From: Chloroflexota bacterium
Lineage (GTDB): Bacteria > Chloroflexota > Dehalococcoidia > Bin125
Assembly: GCA_028874365.1 (NCBI GenBank)
Contig: JAPPJZ010000061.1
Span: forward strand, 2,352 to 66,351
DNA length: 64,000 nucleotides
Reading direction: 5' to 3'
The notes beneath the pieces were generated by a model, which ran no database searches, was not told the DNA's origin, and was given only the letters and a program-made list of their open reading frames with translations. The translations under genes were made by a program, and so were the position numbers. Position 1 is the first letter of the stretch. Each line of letters opens with the position of its first letter. Of the stretch, positions 17,576 to 26,538 are shown piece by piece.

Positions 17576-18496
17576 TCAGAGCGTCGGCGCCAACGAACCC
17601 AGGAGCTCTTCGGTACGAGAGCGTTGGTCTTCGGTTCCGAAGACGACGCCGACGAAGTCGGTGGTACCGGCGTCCTTGAGCTGACGCAGCTGCGTTTCAA
17701 TCTGTTCCTCGGTCCCGAGCACGGCCACATCCTCGGGATGGGCAGCGCCCTGCTTGTCCAGCATCGAGCGGTACGAGGGCAGGCGCTCGTAGTTGGCGAA
17801 CTGCTCGGCAGCGGTCGCGCGAGCGGCATCGACATCGGAGTTGAGCATGACCGGCAGCCCGACCACGATGCGTGGATGCGGGCGCCCGGCTTCGTCGGCG
17901 GCGGCGTTCATTGTCGGCGCGATGTAGGACTCGACGACGTTTGCGGCCGTCATCCAGAGGATCGTGCCATCGGTGCGCGCGCCGGCCAGGCGGAGCATGG
18001 CCGGACCCATTGCGGCCAACATGCAGGAGACCGGCTTCTCGGCGTCGGGCACGTCCAGGCTGACCTGGCCGCGGTAGTGTTCGCCGTCGGTCTGGACCGG
18101 TTCACCGTTCAGCAGCGGGAGCAGGACATCGAGGTATTCCTTCATGTGGCGGGCGGGCCGGTCGAAGGAGTAGCCGAACATGCCCTCGATCACAATCTTG
18201 TGCGACAGGCCGATACCCATCACGAAGCGCTTGCCGCCGGCGGCGGCCTGGACAGTGAGCGCCTGCTGGGCCATCGCGTGCGGGTGGCGGGGATAGGTCG
18301 GCACGACGGCGGTCATCAGCTCGATTCGCTCGGTCTCCGCCCCGGCGAGCGTGAGTGCGCCCATGGCGTCGTGGGAAAAGATGTTGGCCATACCGAAGGT
18401 TGAGAAGCCAGCCGCTTCGGCGCGCTGGGCCTGCTCGACGATGTTCTGCACGCTCGGAGCCGGTCCGGCGCCGCCGATGAAGATTCCGATCTGCAT
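17576..18496 (-). CDS. LLM-class (luciferase-like) flavin/F420-dependent oxidoreductase
   Basis: TIM-barrel LLM signature MQIGIFIGG..., GFSTFGMANIFSHD, RFVMGIGLSHKIV; 306 aa. Convergent with the DDN-like gene; the stops abut. Confidence 0.8.
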   Translation of the reverse strand: MQIGIFIGGAGPAPSVQNIVEQAQRAEAAGFSTFGMANIFSHDAMGALTLAGAETERIELMTAVVPTYPRHPHAMAQQALTVQAAAGGKRFVMGIGLSHKIVIEGMFGYSFDRPARHMKEYLDVLLPLLNGEPVQTDGEHYRGQVSLDVPDAEKPVSCMLAAMGPAMLRLAGARTDGTILWMTAANVVESYIAPTMNAAADEAGRPHPRIVVGLPVMLNSDVDAARATAAEQFANYERLPSYRSMLDKQGAAHPEDVAVLGTEEQIETQLRQLKDAGTTDFVGVVFGTEDQRSRTEELLGSLAPTL

Positions 18497-18542
18497 ACTC
18501 TGTTCCTGTTCGATTCGCTGCGTCGTCGGATTAGCAGCGGGG

Positions 18543-18582
18543 AACCCTCACCCTAACCCTCTCCCTCAGGGAGAGGGGATCA
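18543..18582. repeat. Copy A of a GC-rich palindromic intergenic repeat family: CCCTCACCCTAACC + hairpin CCCTCTCCC-TCAG-GGAGAGGGG
   Basis: Perfect 9-10 bp stem with 4-nt loop. Lies in the 83-bp gap between two minus-strand genes. The same core recurs at 19803, 19914 and 20880. Confidence 0.85.
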
Positions 18583-19569
18583 ATGGGGCTGCACGAGGAT
18601 GCGGCCGCGGACGCCGCCGGCGAGGATCTTCGCGGCTGCGTCGGGGACGTCTTCGAGTCCTATGCGCGACTCGACGAGGTCGAGGAGGTTGCGGTCGCGG
18701 AAGTCTTGGGCCATGCGCGACCAGAGCCGCGGTCGATCCTCGCTCGGCCAGAAGACGGACTCGATGCCGACCAGGGTGACGCCGCGGAGGATGAAGGGCA
18801 TCACGTTGGTCTCGACGCCTACGCCGCCGGTCAAACCCGACAGGGCCACGACACCGCCGTACTTCGTCTGCCTGAGGATCGAGGCCGTGGTTGAACCGCC
18901 GACCGGGTCGACTCCAGCCGCCCAGCGCTCGCGCTCGATCGGCCGGCGAGATTCGGCCGCCAGTTCTTCACGGTCGAGGATTTCGGTTGCGCCCAAGGCT
19001 CGCAGGAAGTCGTGCTCAGCGGACTTGCCGGTGCTGGCGTGGACTTCGTAGCCGCGCGCCGAGAGCATGGCGACGGCGGTCGAGCCGACGCCTCCAGTTG
19101 CGCCGCTGACGATCACGGGCCCGGCGTCGGGTCCGACGCCGCCCTTCTCGATGACGTCGACCGACATGGCGGCAGTGATTCCGGCCGTGCCCAGCGTCAT
19201 CGCCTCTTCTGAGGTCATCCCATCGGGTAGCGGCGCCAGCCAGTCGGCCGGAACGCGGACTCGCTCGGCGTAGCCACCCGGGTGGGCGGTGCCGAGGTCG
19301 TAGCCGGTCGCGACGACTGAATCGCCCGCCGCGTAGCGCGAATCTGAGGACTCCAGCACCGTGCCGGCGAAATCGATGCCGATCGTCATTGGGTACTTGA
19401 AGACGACGCGGCCATTCGGGGTGCAGGCGAGGCCGTCCTTGTAGTTGAGGTCGGACCATTCGACCGCAACCGTCACGTCGCCCTCGGGCAGCGCGTTCTC
19501 TTCCAGCTCCTGGACAGACGCGGTGAAGTCGTCCTCGTCCTTGTTGACCACAAACGCTCGGTAGCCCAC
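18580..19569 (-). CDS. Zinc-free quinone oxidoreductase / YhdH-AcuI family MDR-superfamily NADPH-dependent reductase
   Basis: N-terminus MGYRAFVVNKDEDDFTASVQELEENALPEGDVTVAVEWSDLNYKDGLA and Rossmann motif VSGATGGVGSTAV are typical of the YhdH/acrylyl-CoA reductase subgroup. Confidence 0.8.
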   Translation of the reverse strand: MGYRAFVVNKDEDDFTASVQELEENALPEGDVTVAVEWSDLNYKDGLACTPNGRVVFKYPMTIGIDFAGTVLESSDSRYAAGDSVVATGYDLGTAHPGGYAERVRVPADWLAPLPDGMTSEEAMTLGTAGITAAMSVDVIEKGGVGPDAGPVIVSGATGGVGSTAVAMLSARGYEVHASTGKSAEHDFLRALGATEILDREELAAESRRPIERERWAAGVDPVGGSTTASILRQTKYGGVVALSGLTGGVGVETNVMPFILRGVTLVGIESVFWPSEDRPRLWSRMAQDFRDRNLLDLVESRIGLEDVPDAAAKILAGGVRGRILVQPH

Positions 19570-19725
19570 GACGCCTCCTGTCTCGATATTGCAGTCAGGC
19601 TAGGTGCGAGTTTAGGTGCGGGGAAGGTTACGGGGGCAGTCGCTTCCCCTAGTGACGGGGGAGCAGGCCGTTGTTGGCGGCCAACGTGTGCGGGACGCTG
19701 AAGCTGCGATCGATGATCACGGTCT

Positions 19726-20003
19726 GGGCCCCGCATCAAGTGCGGGGCATCGGAAGCGGTGCGGGGCATCGGAGTTGGTGCGGGGCATCGGACGCCGGAG
19801 GGCCCTCACCCCAACCCTCTCCCTCGGGGAGAGGGGACCGGAAGTGGAAGGGGCTGGGCCCCGCAACAAGTGCGGGGCATCGGAGTTGGTGCGGGGCATC
19901 GGACGCTGGGGGACCCTCACCCCAACCCTCTCCCTCGGGGAGAGGGGGCCGGAAGGGGAAAGGGCTGGGCCCCGCATCAAGTGCGGGGCATCGGAAGCGG
20001 CGT
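19726..20003. repeat. Nested tandem array of the same repeat family: 2.3 units of 130/111 bp, each with three parts: hairpin GCCCCGCA-TCAAG-TGCGGGGC; 2-3 copies of a 19-nt sub-repeat (G)TGCGGGGCATCGGANNNG; core CCCTCACCCCAACCCTCTCCCTCGGGGAGAGGGG
   Basis: Direct reading. Hairpins are at 19728-19748, 19858-19878 and 19969-19989. Cores are at 19803-19836 and 19914-19947. The unit-length difference equals one 19-nt sub-repeat. Fills the 455-bp gap between two minus-strand genes. Confidence 0.85.
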
Positions 20004-20024
20004 TCGGTGTACGGGGTCGGTGCG

Positions 20025-20720
20025 TTAGCCGGCGGCTTCGGCGTAGATGGGGGGCTCCTGTGCGCTGGGGTCGGTGATCTGGTCGAGGAATTGGAGGATT
20101 TGCTCGGCGGATTGCCCTTTGAGGTGGGGGAAATGCTCGACGGCTTCGGCGATCAGGGCGTCCTGGTCGGGTGGGTCGGGGAGCTGGACCGGTTCTGTGG
20201 GCGTTTTTTCTTCCGGGGCCTGATTGGGGACGATCTCCTGCTCTGGACTGGAGATCGTCGATTCGGGGCGGTTAGTTTGGGCTGATTTTGGGCTGGTTTC
20301 GGACAATTCTTGCGGTCCTTCCTCGTAGAGGCCCGGCTGGTCGGCTCGTTGCTCGGCCCTGAGGTGGATCTGCTGGACGGTGCGGCGGATTTCGCGGGCG
20401 AGAGCGTTGAGCCGCGTCTCCTGGTTCTCGCGGGCGCGGAGGTATTCGACCGGCGTGAGGCGATCGGCGTTGTTGGCGACGTCGTCGTTTTTGACCGCCA
20501 GGGAGAGACGGATCTTCAGCAGCTGGAGCGACTCGAGCAGCAGGTCGTCGGCGGCCGGGCCGGCGATCTGACTCCAGTGGGTTTCGATCAGTTGGAGGTC
20601 GCTGGTTACGGTGGCCTTGGAGATCTTGAGCTGCTCGGCGATCTTGCGCTGCGAGTATCCGCGCTGGGCGAGGTAGTGGACGTGGATGGCTCGGCGTCGG
20701 CGTTTGGGTGGGATGTGCAT
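20025..20720 (-). CDS. Hypothetical DNA-binding protein: N-terminal sigma70-region4/LuxR-like HTH, predicted helical middle, acidic Pro/Glu/Gln-rich disordered C-terminal tail
   Basis: HTH RRRAIHVHYLAQRGYSQRKIAEQLKISKATVTSDLQ. Start taken at ATG 20720 (MHIPPKRRRR) because GAGAGG lies 8 nt upstream; the ORF track's longer version starts at 20852. Tail: SPEQEIVPNQAPEEKTPTEPVQLPDPPDQD. High GC3. Confidence 0.5.
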   Translation of the reverse strand: MHIPPKRRRRAIHVHYLAQRGYSQRKIAEQLKISKATVTSDLQLIETHWSQIAGPAADDLLLESLQLLKIRLSLAVKNDDVANNADRLTPVEYLRARENQETRLNALAREIRRTVQQIHLRAEQRADQPGLYEEGPQELSETSPKSAQTNRPESTISSPEQEIVPNQAPEEKTPTEPVQLPDPPDQDALIAEAVEHFPHLKGQSAEQILQFLDQITDPSAQEPPIYAEAAG

Positions 20721-20851
20721 GGTGGGCCTCTCTGTGCTGGGGTACATATGTTCTGCACAATGTACCGAATGCATGTTCTGTTGGGTGTGTCGTAGTTGGC
20801 GGAAGGAGGCGGCGGTGGACAGGGCGTGCCCCCCTCTGTCTCTACGAGACA

Positions 20852-20965
20852 TCTCCCCCCGCTTGACGCGGGGGGAGAGCCCTCACCCTAACCCTCTCCC
20901 AAAGGGAGAGGGGATCAGAAGGGATCAGAGAGAAAGGGGCTGCCTCCCGATCAAGTCGGGGAACG
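20852..20965. repeat. Copy C of the repeat family. Hairpin CTCCCCCCGC-TTGAC-GCGGGGGGAG (20853-20877), core CCCTCACCCTAACCCTCTCCC-AAA-GGGAGAGGGG (20880-20913), GATCAGAAGG/GATCAGAGAG mini-direct repeat, then degenerate TCAAGT hairpin (20944-20962)
   Basis: Direct reading. Same part order as units in the 19726-20003 array. Lies in the 122-bp gap between two minus-strand genes. Confidence 0.85.
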
Positions 20966-20974
20966 GGAGTGGGG

Positions 20975-21814
20975 TTAGTGCAGGCGGGCGGCGAGCATTT
21001 GGTTGGCGGTCTGGGGATCTGACTCGGCTCCGTCGTGGAGTTCGTGGCGGACGACGACGCCGTCGGCGCTGAAGTCGACGATCGTGGCTCCGCCGGAGTG
21101 GCGCGGGGCGCCGGGATAGTAGGCGGGGACGGTACCGTCGCCGACGCCCTCATGCACATCGATGTGACCGAGCGCGACGTAGTCGGCGCCGAGCGACTGG
21201 ATTTCTGAGGAGTGGATCTGGTAGGAGTAGCGCGACTCTCCGGTGCCGACGTAGTAGCCGTGGGCCATGGCGACGCGCCAGACGTACTGGTCGGAACCAT
21301 TGGCCCAGGCCGGCATTGCCGAGGCGGGGGAGAAGTCGTTGTAGCTCTCGTGGGCCTGACCCCAGAACTGGACGCCGTGCTCTTCGAGCAGGACGAGTTC
21401 GCCTTCGGCCGAGGCGATGATGTGCACGTTGGACGGAAAGGCGTCGGCGAACTTCTGGTAGATGCCGTCGGGCATGTGCGGGTCGTGGTTGCCGGGCAGG
21501 ACAACGACGGGTCGGCCGACGGCCTCCATCAGTTCGCCGGTGACTTCGACGTAGGGAAGCTTGACGCGGACGTGGTCGAAGAAGTCGCCGGCGATGGCGA
21601 CGACATCGACATCGGCCTCGACACCGAGTTCGAGCACGTGCTGGAAGGCCTTGAGCGCCGGTTCGAGCGACTCCGCGCCGTCTCGTTCGGTCTTCCAGGG
21701 CTGCGATGTGTAGGCGCCGAGGTGCACATCGGAAGTGTGCAGCATCCGCAGCGGGCGAATCTCCGTCGATGCATCCGAGAGACCGGCTCGCGGCGGATAG
21801 ACATCAGTACTCAT
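20975..21814 (-). CDS. Metallophosphoesterase (calcineurin-like; SbcD/Mre11-like N-terminal fold)
   Basis: Motifs [25 protein letters not shown], GHxH-like AMAHGYYVG / LGHIDVHEG; 279 aa. Confidence 0.75.
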
Positions 21815-23420: not shown

Positions 23421-24440
23421 CTAGCGGCGCATCGCGGCGACTCGTGGGTTGTGGATGATTTGCGATGTGTTCTGGTAGGTGGGGACTCCGACGTCGTCGA
23501 AGACCTGATTGATCCCGCTGCGGATTTCCTCGGTGAGTTTCCAGTCGGTGGCGGCGACGTTTTCCTCGAGTTCGCGTTCGTTTCTCATCCCGACGAGGGC
23601 GCAGGAGACGCCGGGGTGATCCAGAACCCAGGCGAGCGCGAGTTGGGCGACCGTCTTGCCGTAGCCGTCGGCCAGCTCCGCCAGACGGTTGCAGACTTCC
23701 ACTTCCCGACGGAAGTGCTCGGGCTCGAACAGGGGCAGGTTGAAGGCGATTTGATTGCCGCGCCAGTCGCCCTCTTCGAAGGTGTGGTCGGGCGAAAATG
23801 CGCCGGTCAACAGACCGAACGCGAGCGAGCCGTAGGACATGAAACCGACGCCGTTGTCCATGCACCAGGGCAGGACCCGAGCTTCCATCCGACGATCGAA
23901 CATGTGGTAGCCGATCTGGTTGGCCGTGATGTGTCCGTACTGTTCGCACTGCTGCATCAGGTCGATGTCGTAGTTCGAGACTCCGTAGTGGCGAATCTTG
24001 CCGCTCTGCTTGAGTTCTTCGAGGGCTTCCATCGTTTCCTCGATCGGCGTGTCGAAATCGGGCCAGTGGATCAGGAGCAGATCCAGGTAGTCCGTGTTCA
24101 GACGCCGTAGACAACCTTCGGCGCACTCGATGACGTTCTGCTTGGACGAGTTGAGGCCCGTCATCGTCGGTGTGTCGTCGTAGTCGAAGCCGACCTTCGT
24201 CACGAGGATGATCTCGTTGCGGCGGTCGCCCAGCGCCCTGGCGAGCAGTTCCTCGGACAGGTAGGGGCCGTAGCCCTCGGCGGTGTCGAACAGGGTGATG
24301 CCGCGGTCGATGGCCATGTTGACGGCCCTGGCGGCCTCGTCCACGTCGATGTGGCCGTACATGTTGGTGCTCATCTCCCAGGTGCCGAAGCCGACTGCGG
24401 AGGAGACGAGGTCCGTATTGCCAAATCGTCGCTGTTCCAT
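23421..24440 (-). CDS. Aldo/keto reductase (paralog 1 of 3)
   Basis: MEQRRFGNTDLV...GFGTWEM...IDRGITLFDTAEGYGPY...GKIRHYGVSN; AKR catalytic tetrad context. Confidence 0.85.
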   Translation of the reverse strand: MEQRRFGNTDLVSSAVGFGTWEMSTNMYGHIDVDEAARAVNMAIDRGITLFDTAEGYGPYLSEELLARALGDRRNEIILVTKVGFDYDDTPTMTGLNSSKQNVIECAEGCLRRLNTDYLDLLLIHWPDFDTPIEETMEALEELKQSGKIRHYGVSNYDIDLMQQCEQYGHITANQIGYHMFDRRMEARVLPWCMDNGVGFMSYGSLAFGLLTGAFSPDHTFEEGDWRGNQIAFNLPLFEPEHFRREVEVCNRLAELADGYGKTVAQLALAWVLDHPGVSCALVGMRNERELEENVAATDWKLTEEIRSGINQVFDDVGVPTYQNTSQIIHNPRVAAMRR

Positions 24441-24455
24441 GTTCGAGCCTGCTAC

Positions 24456-25445
24456 TCAGATTGCCTGAGCGGCGTTCTGGTAGGTGGGGGCTCCGACTTC
24501 TTCGAAGATCTCGTTGATTGCGGTGCGGATCTCCTCGTTGAGCTTCCAGTCGGTCGCCGCGACGTTTTCCTCGAGTTCTCGCTCGTTTCTCATGCCGACG
24601 AGGGCGCAGGAGACGGCGGGATGGTCGAGGACCCAGGCGAGCGCGAGCTGGGCGACGGTCTTGTTGTAACCGTCGGCGAGTTCGACCAGTCGGTTGGTGA
24701 CCTCGACTTCCTTGCGGAAATGCTCCTCCTGGAACAGCGGCAGGTTGAAGGCCATGCCGCTGCGTCGCCAGTCGCCCTCTTCGAAAGTGGTGTCGGGCGT
24801 GAAGGCGCCGGTGAGCAGGCCGAAACCGAGCGAGCCGTAGGCCATGTAGCCGACTCCGTTGGCGAGGCACCAGGGCAGGACGCGGGATTCCATGCGGCGG
24901 TCGTACATGTTGTAGCCGACCTGGTTGGCGGCGATGTGTCCGTACTGCTCGCACTCTTCCATCATGTCGATGTTGAAGTTGGAGACGCCGTAGTGTCGGA
25001 TTTTGCCGCTCTGCTTGAGTTCCTCGAGGCCCTCCATGGTTTCCTCAATCGGCGTGTCGTGGTCGGGCCAATGGATCAGCATCAGGTCGACGAAGTCGGT
25101 GTTGAGGCGGCGCAGGCAGTCGTCGGTGTGCTCGATGATGTGGGATTTCTTCGAGTTCCGCCCGATCACCTGAGGCGTGTCGTCATAGTCGAATCCGACT
25201 TTCGTCACGAGCACGATCTCGTTGCGGCGGTTGCCGAGCGCTTTGGCGAGCAGCTCCTCGGAGTGGTAGGGGCCGTAGACCTCGGCCGTGTCGAAGAGGG
25301 TGATGCCACGGTCGATGGCCATGTTGACGGCGCGGGCGGCCTCATCGACATCGATGTGGCCGTACATCGTGGTGCTCATCTCCCAGGTGCCGAAGCCGAC
25401 GGCCGAGGCGACGAGGTCGGTGTTGCCGAAGCGTCGTTGTTCCAT
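24456..25445 (-). CDS. Aldo/keto reductase (paralog 2 of 3)
   Basis: About 80% amino-acid identity to paralog 1 over the full length. 15-bp spacer. Confidence 0.85.
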   Translation of the reverse strand: MEQRRFGNTDLVASAVGFGTWEMSTTMYGHIDVDEAARAVNMAIDRGITLFDTAEVYGPYHSEELLAKALGNRRNEIVLVTKVGFDYDDTPQVIGRNSKKSHIIEHTDDCLRRLNTDFVDLMLIHWPDHDTPIEETMEGLEELKQSGKIRHYGVSNFNIDMMEECEQYGHIAANQVGYNMYDRRMESRVLPWCLANGVGYMAYGSLGFGLLTGAFTPDTTFEEGDWRRSGMAFNLPLFQEEHFRKEVEVTNRLVELADGYNKTVAQLALAWVLDHPAVSCALVGMRNERELEENVAATDWKLNEEIRTAINEIFEEVGAPTYQNAAQAI

Positions 25446-25467
25446 GGTTGTCCTCGCAGTTCGGCGG

Positions 25468-26499
25468 CTAGTCGCGGAGGTTGCGGCGGGCGCCGGTGGC
25501 TCGGGCGACGTGGACGACCTGGTCGAGGTTCTGGTAGGTCGGGACTCCGACTTCGGCGAAGATCTCGTTGATCCCGCTGCGGATTTCCTCGGTCAGTTTC
25601 CAGTCGGTCGCTGCGACGTTCTCTTCGAGCTCGCGCTCGTTGCGCATGCCGACCAGGGCGCAGGTGACGCCGGGGTGGTCGAGCACCCAGGCGATGCCGA
25701 GCTGGGCGCAGGTCTTGCCGTAGCCGTCGGCCAGTTCGGCGAGGCGGTTGGCGATCTCGACCTCCTGGCGGAAGCGCTCGCGCTCGAAGAGCGGCAGGTT
25801 GAAGGCGACGCCGTTGGCGCGCCAGTCGCCTTCGCCGAACTCGTGCTCGGGTCCGAACGCGGCAGTCAGCAAGCCGAAGGCGAGCGATCCGTAGGACATG
25901 AAGCCGACGCCGTTGGCCATGCACCAGGGCAGCACGCGCGATTCCATGCGACGGTCGAACATGTGATAGCCGACCTGGTTGGCGACGATCGTCCCGTGGC
26001 GCTGGCACTCTTCCATCATGTCGATGTTGAAGTTGGAGACGCCGTAGTGGCGGATCTTGCCGCTTTGCTTGAGCGATTCCAGCGCTTCCATGGTCTCGTC
26101 GAACGGGGTGTCATGGTCGGGCCAGTGGATCAACATCAGGTCGACGTAGTCGGTGTTGAGCCGGCGCAGGCAGCCCTCGGTGTGCTCGATGACGTTCTCG
26201 CGCTTCGAGTTCAGACCGATGACCTGCGGCTGTTCGTCGTAGTCGAAGCCGACCTTGGTCACCAGGACCACCTCGTTGCGGCGGTTGCCCAACGCCTTGG
26301 CGAGGAGTTCCTCGGAGTGGTACGGGCCGTAGACCTCGGCCGTGTCGAACAGGGTGATTCCGCGATCGATGGCCATGTTCACGGCCTGCGCCGCTTCGTC
26401 CACGTCGATGTGGCCGTACATCGTCGTGCTCATCTCCCAGGTGCCGAAGCCGACCGCCGAGGTGACCAGGTCGCTGTTTCCGAATCGTCGCTCTTCCAT
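25468..26499 (-). CDS. Aldo/keto reductase (paralog 3 of 3)
   Basis: About 80% identity to paralogs 1 and 2. Start taken at MEERRFGNS (26499) by alignment with the paralogs; the ORF continues to an upstream ATG at 26532. Confidence 0.8.
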   Translation of the reverse strand: MEERRFGNSDLVTSAVGFGTWEMSTTMYGHIDVDEAAQAVNMAIDRGITLFDTAEVYGPYHSEELLAKALGNRRNEVVLVTKVGFDYDEQPQVIGLNSKRENVIEHTEGCLRRLNTDYVDLMLIHWPDHDTPFDETMEALESLKQSGKIRHYGVSNFNIDMMEECQRHGTIVANQVGYHMFDRRMESRVLPWCMANGVGFMSYGSLAFGLLTAAFGPEHEFGEGDWRANGVAFNLPLFERERFRQEVEIANRLAELADGYGKTCAQLGIAWVLDHPGVTCALVGMRNERELEENVAATDWKLTEEIRSGINEIFAEVGVPTYQNLDQVVHVARATGARRNLRD

Positions 26500-26538
26500 G
26501 GCTTGATTCCTGTCTAGTTGGTTGGATGCCAATAGCCT

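Follow-up and report, generated by a model that had tools for sequence, protein, structure and literature searches.

Tandem BoxC/PIT/TMECO and REP-like Hairpin Modules beside a Multi-Copy Helix-Turn-Helix Gene in a Chloroflexota Genome

Introduction

A tandem array of short hairpin modules was found in a 455-bp gap at positions 19570-20024 of a 64-kb stretch of DNA from a Chloroflexota bacterium (contig JAPPJZ010000061.1; hereafter the window), where it lies 3' of a 231-aa helix-turn-helix (HTH) gene and 5' of an oxidoreductase gene of the alcohol dehydrogenase type (ADH). The array is assembled from a motif termed TM, which corresponds to the BoxC/PIT/TMECO repeat, and a hairpin termed H, which resembles the CGTC-tagged class of repetitive extragenic palindromes (REPs). 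In this Chloroflexota lineage, an HTH-gene cassette is dispersed in multiple copies with TM and H modules as its standard borders; the array forms the 3' border of one such copy, and the cassette is probably mobile. The reading favored here, with reasonable though far from full confidence, is that of a non-coding mosaic akin to the bacterial interspersed mosaic elements (BIMEs), namely the 3' flank of a dispersed HTH cassette that was amplified by recombination or slippage and whose units are mainly boundary or selfish repeats.

BoxC/PIT/TMECO and the CGTC-type REPs rank among the most widespread short bacterial repeats, and we know of no function, mobilizing enzyme or partner protein for either of them. 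TM and REP-like modules as such are already known; what appears to be undescribed is that Chloroflexota package them in tandem and in one orientation around a multi-copy HTH gene. A lineage that packages both repeats around the gene of a DNA-binding protein would provide a test system for binding at the hairpin core and for movement of the cassette.

Organization of the Tandem Array

The gap separates two minus-strand open reading frames (ORFs), extending from the stop of the HTH gene to the start of the ADH gene, and the first-pass annotation of this DNA had described it as filled by 2.3 tandem units of 130 and 111 bp. These units were recovered at 19728-19999 together with a nested 19-nt sub-repeat: Tandem Repeats Finder (TRF) reported a repeat with a period of 111 at 19759-19995 (2.1 copies, 94% matches, score 425) and a 19-nt repeat nested at 19740-19792 (2.8 copies). 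A repeat search placed the starts of the hairpin-bearing copies at 19721, 19851 and 19962, and the spacings between them resolve into 19+19+92 = 130 and 19+92 = 111, so that a single additional 19-nt sub-repeat accounts for the difference in unit length, just as had been proposed. The array occupies ~19721-19999 rather than the entire gap, however, since 19570-19720 (~150 bp) is unique sequence outside the repeat, which forms the ADH leader on the minus strand, carries the ADH ribosome-binding site (AGGAGG, 19574-19579) and aligns at ~19570-19634 with the orthologous loci L246-L249.

Read on the minus strand from the HTH stop, the modules follow the order H - [TM-h-H] - [TM-h-h-H], where h denotes a 19-nt half-hairpin consisting of the left arm of H (TCCGATGCCCCGCAC) and five variable bases. 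The first REP-like hairpin, H1 (TCCGAT-GCCCCGCA-cttga-TGCGGGGC-CCAG, 19965-19995), stands about 29-31 nt past the stop and is followed by TM1 (CCCTCTCCC-cga-GGGAGAGGG-ttg-GGGTGAGGG, 19914-19946), which joins a hairpin of 9 bp to a third G-block and contains four G3 tracts. Next come h1 (19889-19903), a left arm alone that is placed 19 nt ahead of the hairpin H2 (19854-19884, loop cttgt), and TM2 (19803-19835), the second BoxC/PIT/TMECO motif, whose sequence equals that of TM1. The block is completed by the sub-repeats h2 and h3 (19759-19792, with cores at 19778-19792 and 19759-19773) and by H3 (19721-19754), which forms the right end of the repeat block together with a 3' flank found family-wide, CCCAGACC. 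Both hairpins that had been noticed in the unit are indeed perfect, the 8-bp hairpin GCCCCGCA-5 nt-TGCGGGGC at 19728-19748, 19858-19878 and 19969-19989, and the hairpin adjoining the core, CCCTCTCCC-3 nt-GGGAGAGGG, at 19815-19835 and 19926-19946. Each module was observed in 3-6 copies, against 0.00-0.46 expected from dinucleotide shuffles of the window. The 14-nt core common to H and h is the same in all six window copies, and the 5-nt spacers vary.

All 455 bp of the gap are 100% identical, base for base, in the independent assembly L001 (ENA ERZ25069412), and the array is therefore not an assembly artefact. L001 and the window share 99.3% identity across a 17.5-kb alignment, with ADH genes that are 96.3% identical. 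The two full units diverge from each other by about 6-12%, and their duplication is therefore not recent; the identical array in two strains whose ADH genes have diverged, together with this difference between units, leaves the earlier suggestion of an actively expanding element unsupported. The gap is, as had been stated, the largest non-coding tract of the window, the other true gaps in a gene map based on GC content by codon position being 0-128 bp; this map is crude, and the bigger apparent gaps in it are genes that it missed.

The Repeat-Flanked HTH Cassette

A search with the 231-aa protein gave at least 209 homologues, and every source name given was Chloroflexi or Chloroflexota. Hairpin modules stand beside the gene at eight of the nine HTH loci examined, often in tandem arrays of 1-6 copies, and H or its variant H* lies within about 30-135 nt of the HTH stop at eight of the nine. 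In the six complete HTH loci bearing TM or H, the upstream modules are located at about -140 to -250, reaching about -700 where they are tandem, and the downstream modules start 13-105 nt past the stop; two partial orthologous loci likewise carry modules downstream. The modules are all co-oriented with the HTH gene.

In the window, the gene is preceded by a TM at -192 with two degenerate hairpins and is followed by H at +31, TM, h, H, TM, h, h and H. The upstream repeat module (20855-20912, minus strand) is composed of TM0 (20880-20912) and then the hairpin CCCCCCGC-gtcaa-GCGGGGGG (20855-20875), and a degenerate H-type hairpin (CCCGA-cttga-TCGGG, 20946-20960, minus strand) is found directly past the stop of a metallophosphoesterase gene, with a similar one upstream of the gene at L257. 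The paralogous locus L252 carries TM* at -209 and, downstream, a TM*-like module followed by H at +105; L254 carries TM at -246 and H* at -193, then TM at +13 and H* at +65; and L258 carries H at -215 and TM* at -144, then TM at +29, h at +114 and H at +133. At L253, two upstream units of ~219 bp with H are accompanied by six downstream units of 102 bp from +28 (TRF score 1055), and the corresponding upstream and downstream arrays are 2.9 x 220 bp and 2.2 x 103 bp at L259 and 2.2 x 214 bp and 2.2 x 103 bp at L260. Three paralog loci of one genome possess tandem arrays, of 6 x 102, 2.2 x 103 and 2.9 x 220 bp among others.

The sequence comparisons delimit the conserved portion of the cassette. 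From the upstream TM through the stop codon, the window shows 85% identity to L252, after which similarity resumes at H, and the leader between the upstream module and the ATG (…cattcgSTACAKTG…CAGAACA…; 20721-20854 on the window's minus strand) is conserved among the paralogs. Across 34 left and 26 right arms from nine loci, the TCCGAT tag, the stem and the CCCAGACC tail are near-invariant, whereas the loops and outer flanks vary. Only one stem pair of H has undergone a double change, from G-C to A-T, in five sequences; this covariation supports a conserved hairpin but is too thin to separate a function in RNA from one in DNA.

Some copies harbor a further hairpin of 23 nt. TM* is a TM with AGCCTGYCCCCGCGAAGGCGGGG inside loop 2, and H* is an H with CCKGCCCCTGGCTTGAACAGGGG after the CTTG of its loop; such nested hairpins were located in L001 (6534-6590), L252 (3781-3840 and 4719-4780), L258 (about 2850-2905), L246 (566-625), L247 (371-430) and L254 (2807-2865 and 3740-3800).

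The dispersal of the cassette is evident from its paralogs, three of which lie on a single 3.49-Mb contig (ENA ERZ25069412, ctg853966) at 0.16, 1.24 and 1.95 Mb. Several homologues share one longest contig, and a paralog with 59% identity in the same metagenome-assembled genome (MAG) as the window is OXN86_10755. The paralog neighborhoods are unrelated to one another, comprising fmt, an enoyl-CoA hydratase with cytochrome c, GRDB gene pairs, proB, and a luciferase-like gene with a halogenase. At L258 (1279-5859), the cassette stands between tandemly duplicated gene pairs (a GRDB-domain protein of 159 aa and a protein of 275 aa, repeated), and the cassette or its repeats may have mediated that duplication. 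The HTH paralogs of L257 (283 aa) and L260 (228 aa) share a syntenic position (BrkB, proB / HTH / alpha/beta hydrolase) in two distinct genomes, which are 3.1-3.5 Mb in size, and some cassette insertions are therefore old and vertically inherited.

The HTH Protein

Homologues place the start of the HTH protein at 20720 (MHIPP..., 231 aa), so that the gene covers 20025-20720 on the minus strand and the 275-aa ORF reaching 20852 is an over-extension; in exact look-ups, neither this 275-aa ORF nor the paralog P0126 was on record. An AlphaFold model built with 52 homologues has a mean predicted local distance difference test score (pLDDT) of 74, with values above 90 for residues 1-120, and consists of a three-helix HTH, a long helical hairpin at 35-124, a disordered linker at 130-184 and a small C-terminal two-helix domain. 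Foldseek against the PDB returned HTH matches only, for example to the DNA-binding domain of DeoR (root-mean-square deviation 0.6 Å over 43 residues), and no whole-protein fold match in the PDB; in a PDB sequence search the HTH alone was matched. Searches of Pfam, NCBIfam, PHROGs and PADLOC gave only weak HTH matches and no catalytic domain, and no relatives were found in viral contigs or plasmids. Candidate identities as a transposase, a terminase small subunit, a defence protein or a phage or plasmid gene were rejected on these profile, fold, viral-contig and plasmid results. Profiles and model agree in predicting a DNA-binding protein devoid of any recognizable catalytic domain.

The TM Module

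The 'core + hairpin' of the first-pass annotation, read on the minus strand, is by its sequence the published BoxC/PIT/TMECO intrastrand-triplex motif. The window contains four TM copies on one strand in three consecutive gaps (18545-18577, 19803-19835, 19914-19946 and 20880-20912), the first being a solitary copy 2 nt past the ADH stop. All four fit CCCTCNCCC N3-6 GGGNGAGGG N3 GGGNGAGGG exactly on the minus strand, and all four are intergenic, between ORFs with strong third-position GC bias. The names BoxC and PIT reportedly go back to Bergler in 1992 and to Hoyne and Maher in 2000. The same formula defines TMECO, which has been equated with BoxC of the 1990s and with the PIT of Hoyne and Maher (Holder et al. 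2015, PMC4666352). According to that study, Escherichia coli MG1655 possesses 23 intergenic TMECO copies without strand bias, the isolated strand forms a triplex in vitro although none was detected in vivo, TMECO loci are more variable between strains than control sites, and copies occur in 262 proteobacterial genomes, with many related G/C-rich triplex motifs in Cyanobacteria (PMC4666352). The motif has also been described, as a 21-mer, as a G-quadruplex-hairpin-duplex switch termed HPGQ (Kaplan et al. 2016, PMC5100583).

The TM copy at 18540-18582 is 97.4% identical over 38-39 nt to E. coli chromosomes, and the match is present, unannotated, in 5409 of 5426 E. coli genomes at a median of 20 places per genome. 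Exact matches to the G-half GGGAGAGGGTTRGGGTGAGGG come from at least 120 stretches of genomes (L003-L122; one genome per species) in about 15 phyla, the listed ones including Parcubacteria, Elusimicrobiota, Atribacterota, Myxococcota and Planctomycetota, and among the matches listed the C-arm and a 3-6-nt loop precede nearly all. Across phyla, this 33-nt sequence is nearly identical. Relative to adjacent long ORFs, TM showed no orientation bias across taxa (21 sense and 24 antisense within 60 nt of a stop), and the co-orientation of all four window copies is hence attributed to local duplication history.

The present copies share with BoxC/PIT/TMECO the 9-nt C-block, the 3-6-nt loop, the two 9-nt G-blocks 3 nt apart, the intergenic position and the differences among related strains. 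They differ in lying inside a 111/130-bp unit with a REP-like hairpin, head-to-tail and tied to a gene cassette, whereas the copies of E. coli are solitary or form inverted pairs without an associated gene; moreover, the host here belongs to Chloroflexota, in contrast with the proteobacterial and cyanobacterial surveys. With HPGQ they have in common the G-rich 21-mer GGGAGAGGGTTAGGGTGAGGG, the complementary C-tract on its 5' side and four G3 tracts with 3-nt loops, and the sole difference lies in how the element is read. Watson-Crick folding of TM recovers the 9-bp hairpin, and by analogy with these systems TM could adopt the 9-bp hairpin, an intrastrand triplex or a G-quadruplex.

A longer 5' flank, cccttccggtCCCCTCTCCCCGAGGGAGAGGG, is common to the window and to two TM copies, spaced by 154 nt, in the Dehalococcoidia MAG OZ219874.1 (L089, 1409-1607), where no HTH homologue lies within the 8 kb examined. 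Together with the window copies, these two look like a Chloroflexota-specific TM subfamily.

The H Module

On the minus strand, H consists of an 8-bp stem, a 5-nt loop, the 5' tag TCCGAT and the 3' tail CCA(GACC); the H3 copy folds as single-stranded DNA at -11.4 kcal/mol (z -4.3). Within the window H is confined to this gap. The exact 21-nt hairpin GCCCCGCACTTGWTGCGGGGC was encountered in at least 120 metagenome loci (L123-L242), and among the matches listed it is found at the apex or as the end module of many unrelated structures of a palindromic or MITE-like (miniature inverted-repeat transposable element) kind, whose partner hairpins keep the TCAAG/CTTGA loop on different stems (CCCGGA, CCCGTG, TCCGGA and others). 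Among 112 distinct metagenome copies of the exact hairpin in these matches, 27 have the CGTC tag and 22 the CCA tail. No paper was found in a literature search by the hairpin sequence.

CGTC-tagged REPs have stems of 8-9 bp, loops of 4-5 nt and a CCA tail, number from tens to thousands in a genome and have no dedicated transposase (Di Nocera et al. 2013, PMC3733652). H resembles them in its 8-bp stem, 5-nt loop and unpaired CCA tail, in its position downstream of genes, and in having no known dedicated transposase; in addition, CCCAG stands 3' of the stem in 26 of 26 right arms from HTH loci, one of which is a stray match outside a cassette. The lineage tag is nevertheless CGAT or CGAC, as opposed to CGTC with its variants TGTC and CCTC, the H copies around HTH genes are all head-to-tail, unlike the mostly head-to-head dimers and rare clusters of CGTC REPs, and left-arm-only copies (h) are present. 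In view of its tag and head-to-tail units, H is CGTC-REP-like rather than a clean member of the CGTC REPs. A parallel for the architecture is offered by the BIMEs of enterobacteria, which are likewise intergenic mosaic tandem clusters of short palindromic units and other short motifs with variable copy number, but which alternate the orientation of GTAG-type REPs, whereas here all units are direct and the partner is BoxC/TM.

The array had been called REP/MITE-like, of which the REP part stands on the features of the hairpin and the MITE part does not: a MITE was rejected because neither the unit nor the cassette has terminal inverted repeats at its ends, the flanking repeats are direct and no target-site duplication was identified. 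The expectation that the modules occur elsewhere, which had been framed as a search with the core, proved correct, with TM found in three consecutive window gaps, at paralogous loci and across bacteria. The composite of H and TM was encountered neither among the metagenome loci listed for H nor among the genome loci listed for TM (120 each), which is weak evidence of absence, as it covers only the matches listed; the longer common 5' flank in L089 is a partial exception.

Variation among Orthologous Loci

Orthologous loci were found by exact-protein look-ups of members of the 90% cluster of the luciferase-like protein encoded beyond the ADH gene. In L243-L245, where ADH is about 80% identical, the order is metallophosphoesterase - 33 bp - ADH - 24 bp - luciferase-like gene, with neither the HTH gene nor repeats. 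In L246 and L247, where ADH is about 86% identical, the HTH gene is present and the gaps differ from that of the window: L246 has a single degenerate H, and L247 has TM, H, a spacer and then an H whose loop encloses a 23-nt hairpin. The window, L001, L002, L246-248 and L250 have a TM past the ADH stop, and L243-245, L249 and L251 lack it. In L001 this copy bears the nested 23-nt hairpin in loop 2 (TM*), whereas the window has plain TM, a difference that points to gene conversion, or to insertion of a hairpin, between close strains.

Judged from these alignments, module content varies among species or genera, in line with what Holder et al. found in E. coli, and is stable between the two closest strains. 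The proposed comparison of unit numbers in relatives accordingly gave a divided outcome, in that module counts differ among relatives but the closest strain, L001, has an identical array. The differences in module content between related genomes fit the suggestion of a recombination hotspot, that is, of a site prone to recombination or slippage.

The contigs L246, L247, L248 and L249 end within or beside the HTH gene or repeat region, which suggests that the repeats break short-read assemblies; for annotation, it follows that such a repeat region can interrupt an assembly, as the L246-L249 contig ends indicate.

Proposed Origin and Possible Roles of the Array

In the favored reading, unequal recombination or slippage during replication between copies of H would have duplicated the canonical 3' module TM-(h)-H in tandem, a process that DNA prone to hairpins, triplexes or G-quadruplexes could promote. 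The repeats would then survive chiefly as cassette boundaries of a selfish or neutral kind, and an effect on the host, if any, would most likely come from stable stem-loops that end the HTH transcript on its 3' side or from replication stalling; the array would be neither a canonical terminator nor a promoter nor coding sequence. Several points weigh against this account. Every functional step in it is inferred, and the two closest strains are 100% identical over the array, instability being seen at deeper divergence only. The pair h-H with its 19-nt period recurs at the independent paralog locus L258 (TRF period 19), and this recurrence, taken with the invariant 14-nt core and the differing spacers, hints at sequence-specific constraint over plain slippage. 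At the distant paralog L257 (51% identity), other hairpins take the place of TM and H. The cassette ends and the empty target site are not definable at base resolution, the cassette-less genomes being about 80% identical in ADH, and the link between repeats and HTH gene was drawn from 64 kb of the source genome and a few kilobases per paralog.

An alternative that seems possible, if somewhat doubtful, regards TM and H as sequences that act in cis as the ends of a mobile HTH cassette or as the target into which it preferentially inserts, in the manner of REPs and their associated tyrosine transposases (RAYTs) or of an insertion sequence (IS) in a REP, so that the array would be a split or duplicated target or an end region. 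It is consistent with the paralogs in unrelated neighborhoods, three of them on one chromosome, with the presence or absence of the whole block among relatives, with the directly oriented modules on both sides, and with the similarity between paralog loci that begins at the upstream TM and stops at the downstream H. REPs have furthermore been documented as IS targets and RAYT flanks (PMC1525189, PMC2817692, PMC3733652). The likeness to REPIN/RAYT systems lies in a gene flanked on both sides by one hairpin-repeat family; by contrast, the gene flanked here encodes an HTH protein without an HUH/Y1 motif or other catalytic domain, it is multi-copy, and its repeats are direct, whereas RAYTs are usually single-copy with inverted repeats. 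The same protein, in which the N-terminal HTH alone was detected and PDB fold matches are to the HTH only, argues against this alternative, as do the failure to find either a target-site duplication or a clean empty site, the old insertions that are syntenic between genomes (L257, L260), and the viral-contig and plasmid searches that returned no relatives.

A further proposal, which we judge unlikely, sees in the array the binding sites of the adjacent HTH protein (iteron-, operator- or centromere-like), placed at the TCCGATGCCCCGC(AC) core or the inverted repeat of H, whose copy number would tune autoregulation or build a nucleoprotein complex. It would account for the six identical 14-nt cores with varying spacers, the 19-nt period at L258, the near-invariant TCCGAT and CCCAGACC of the nine loci, and the proximity of H or H* to the stop at eight of nine HTH loci, and in the model the DeoR-like HTH is joined to a long helical hairpin that could dimerize. 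On the other hand, the 21-nt hairpin is widespread in unrelated metagenome contigs without a homologue of the HTH protein, and loop length ranges over 5-28 nt including the nested-hairpin variants, so that a fixed-spacing operator in double-stranded DNA is incompatible with those copies. The upstream module of the window, moreover, is without the TCCGAT core.

A role as RNA, whether as a terminator or 3'-end stabilizer of the HTH transcript or as tandem small RNAs, is likewise improbable in our assessment. The first module follows the stop by 13-31 nt in seven of the eight TM/H loci (by about 40 nt in L252, counting the TM*-like module recognized by eye), and as RNA both strands of the array gave significantly better folds than did shuffles (z -4.2 and -4.6); the local hairpins are recovered in single-stranded DNA as well. 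For CGTC and GTAG REPs, a location downstream of genes predominates and action as RNA has been proposed (PMC3733652). Nevertheless, a consensus scan of the gap detected no sigma-70-like promoter, no intrinsic-terminator-like site and no U-tract, and hence no promoter consensus inside the units; neither promoter nor terminator activity was found when PIT/TMECO was tested in E. coli (PMC4666352); TM orientation across taxa is unbiased; and modules of the same kinds are also present on the upstream side of the HTH promoter region. Scanned against Rfam by E-value, 19000-20600 yielded nothing meaningful, the gap showing chance-level miRNA matches alone (E above 0.5), and at the gathering score no Rfam family, not even a tRNA or riboswitch, was obtained for the whole window. 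The first-pass annotation had suggested that the array could be a terminator or mRNA-stabilizing structure of an upstream oxidoreductase gene, which reverses the order of transcription: the HTH gene is upstream and the oxidoreductase gene downstream, and since the array lies 5' of the latter it cannot be the terminator of that gene.

It is a speculative and rather improbable extension of these proposals that the H hairpin has its cognate partner in the HTH protein, the gene and its TM/H arrays forming a self-contained mobile 'REPtron-like' cassette without an HUH transposase, in which the arrays would supply the cis sites (ends, iterons or centromere-like seeds). If true, it would provide the first dedicated protein for a CGTC-type REP class and a genetic handle on BoxC/PIT, whose role has been unknown since the 1990s.

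That the repeats encode a repetitive PNPLPxGEG-like peptide within a real gene is practically untenable, even though gene callers ran ORFs through arrays in L001 (4394-5377, a 327-aa HTH call) and L253 (4703-5310, a 208-aa call covering the 6 x 102-bp array), because the 19-nt and 130-bp periods are not multiples of 3 and break the reading frame, the indels between relatives are 23 nt or whole modules and likewise not multiples of 3, ORFs across the array match no Pfam family, the HTH homologues end (...YAEAAG) before the array in 52 of 52 aligned members, and the L001 call arose from a 1-bp deletion (frameshift) near the end of the HTH gene. The non-coding nature of the array, which had been assumed at the outset, thus stands, and such arrays are liable to be mis-called as ORFs in annotation, as these two calls illustrate.

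Neighboring Genes and Additional Observations

The minus-strand genes around the array were assigned by Pfam: a luciferase-like F420 oxidoreductase (LLM) at 17576-18496, the Zn-ADH/quinone-oxidoreductase-type gene at 18580-19569, the ORF at 20025-20852 with a weak HTH match alone, and the metallophosphoesterase at 20975-21814. Proteins of the window are on record as NCBI MDE2892767-72 with locus tags OXN86_, and the nearest named relatives of the host are Chloroflexi MAGs. Farther along the minus strand, 23421-26532 holds a tandem triplet of paralogous aldo-keto reductase genes with a mutual DNA identity of about 82%, and this triplet is also present in the relative L243.

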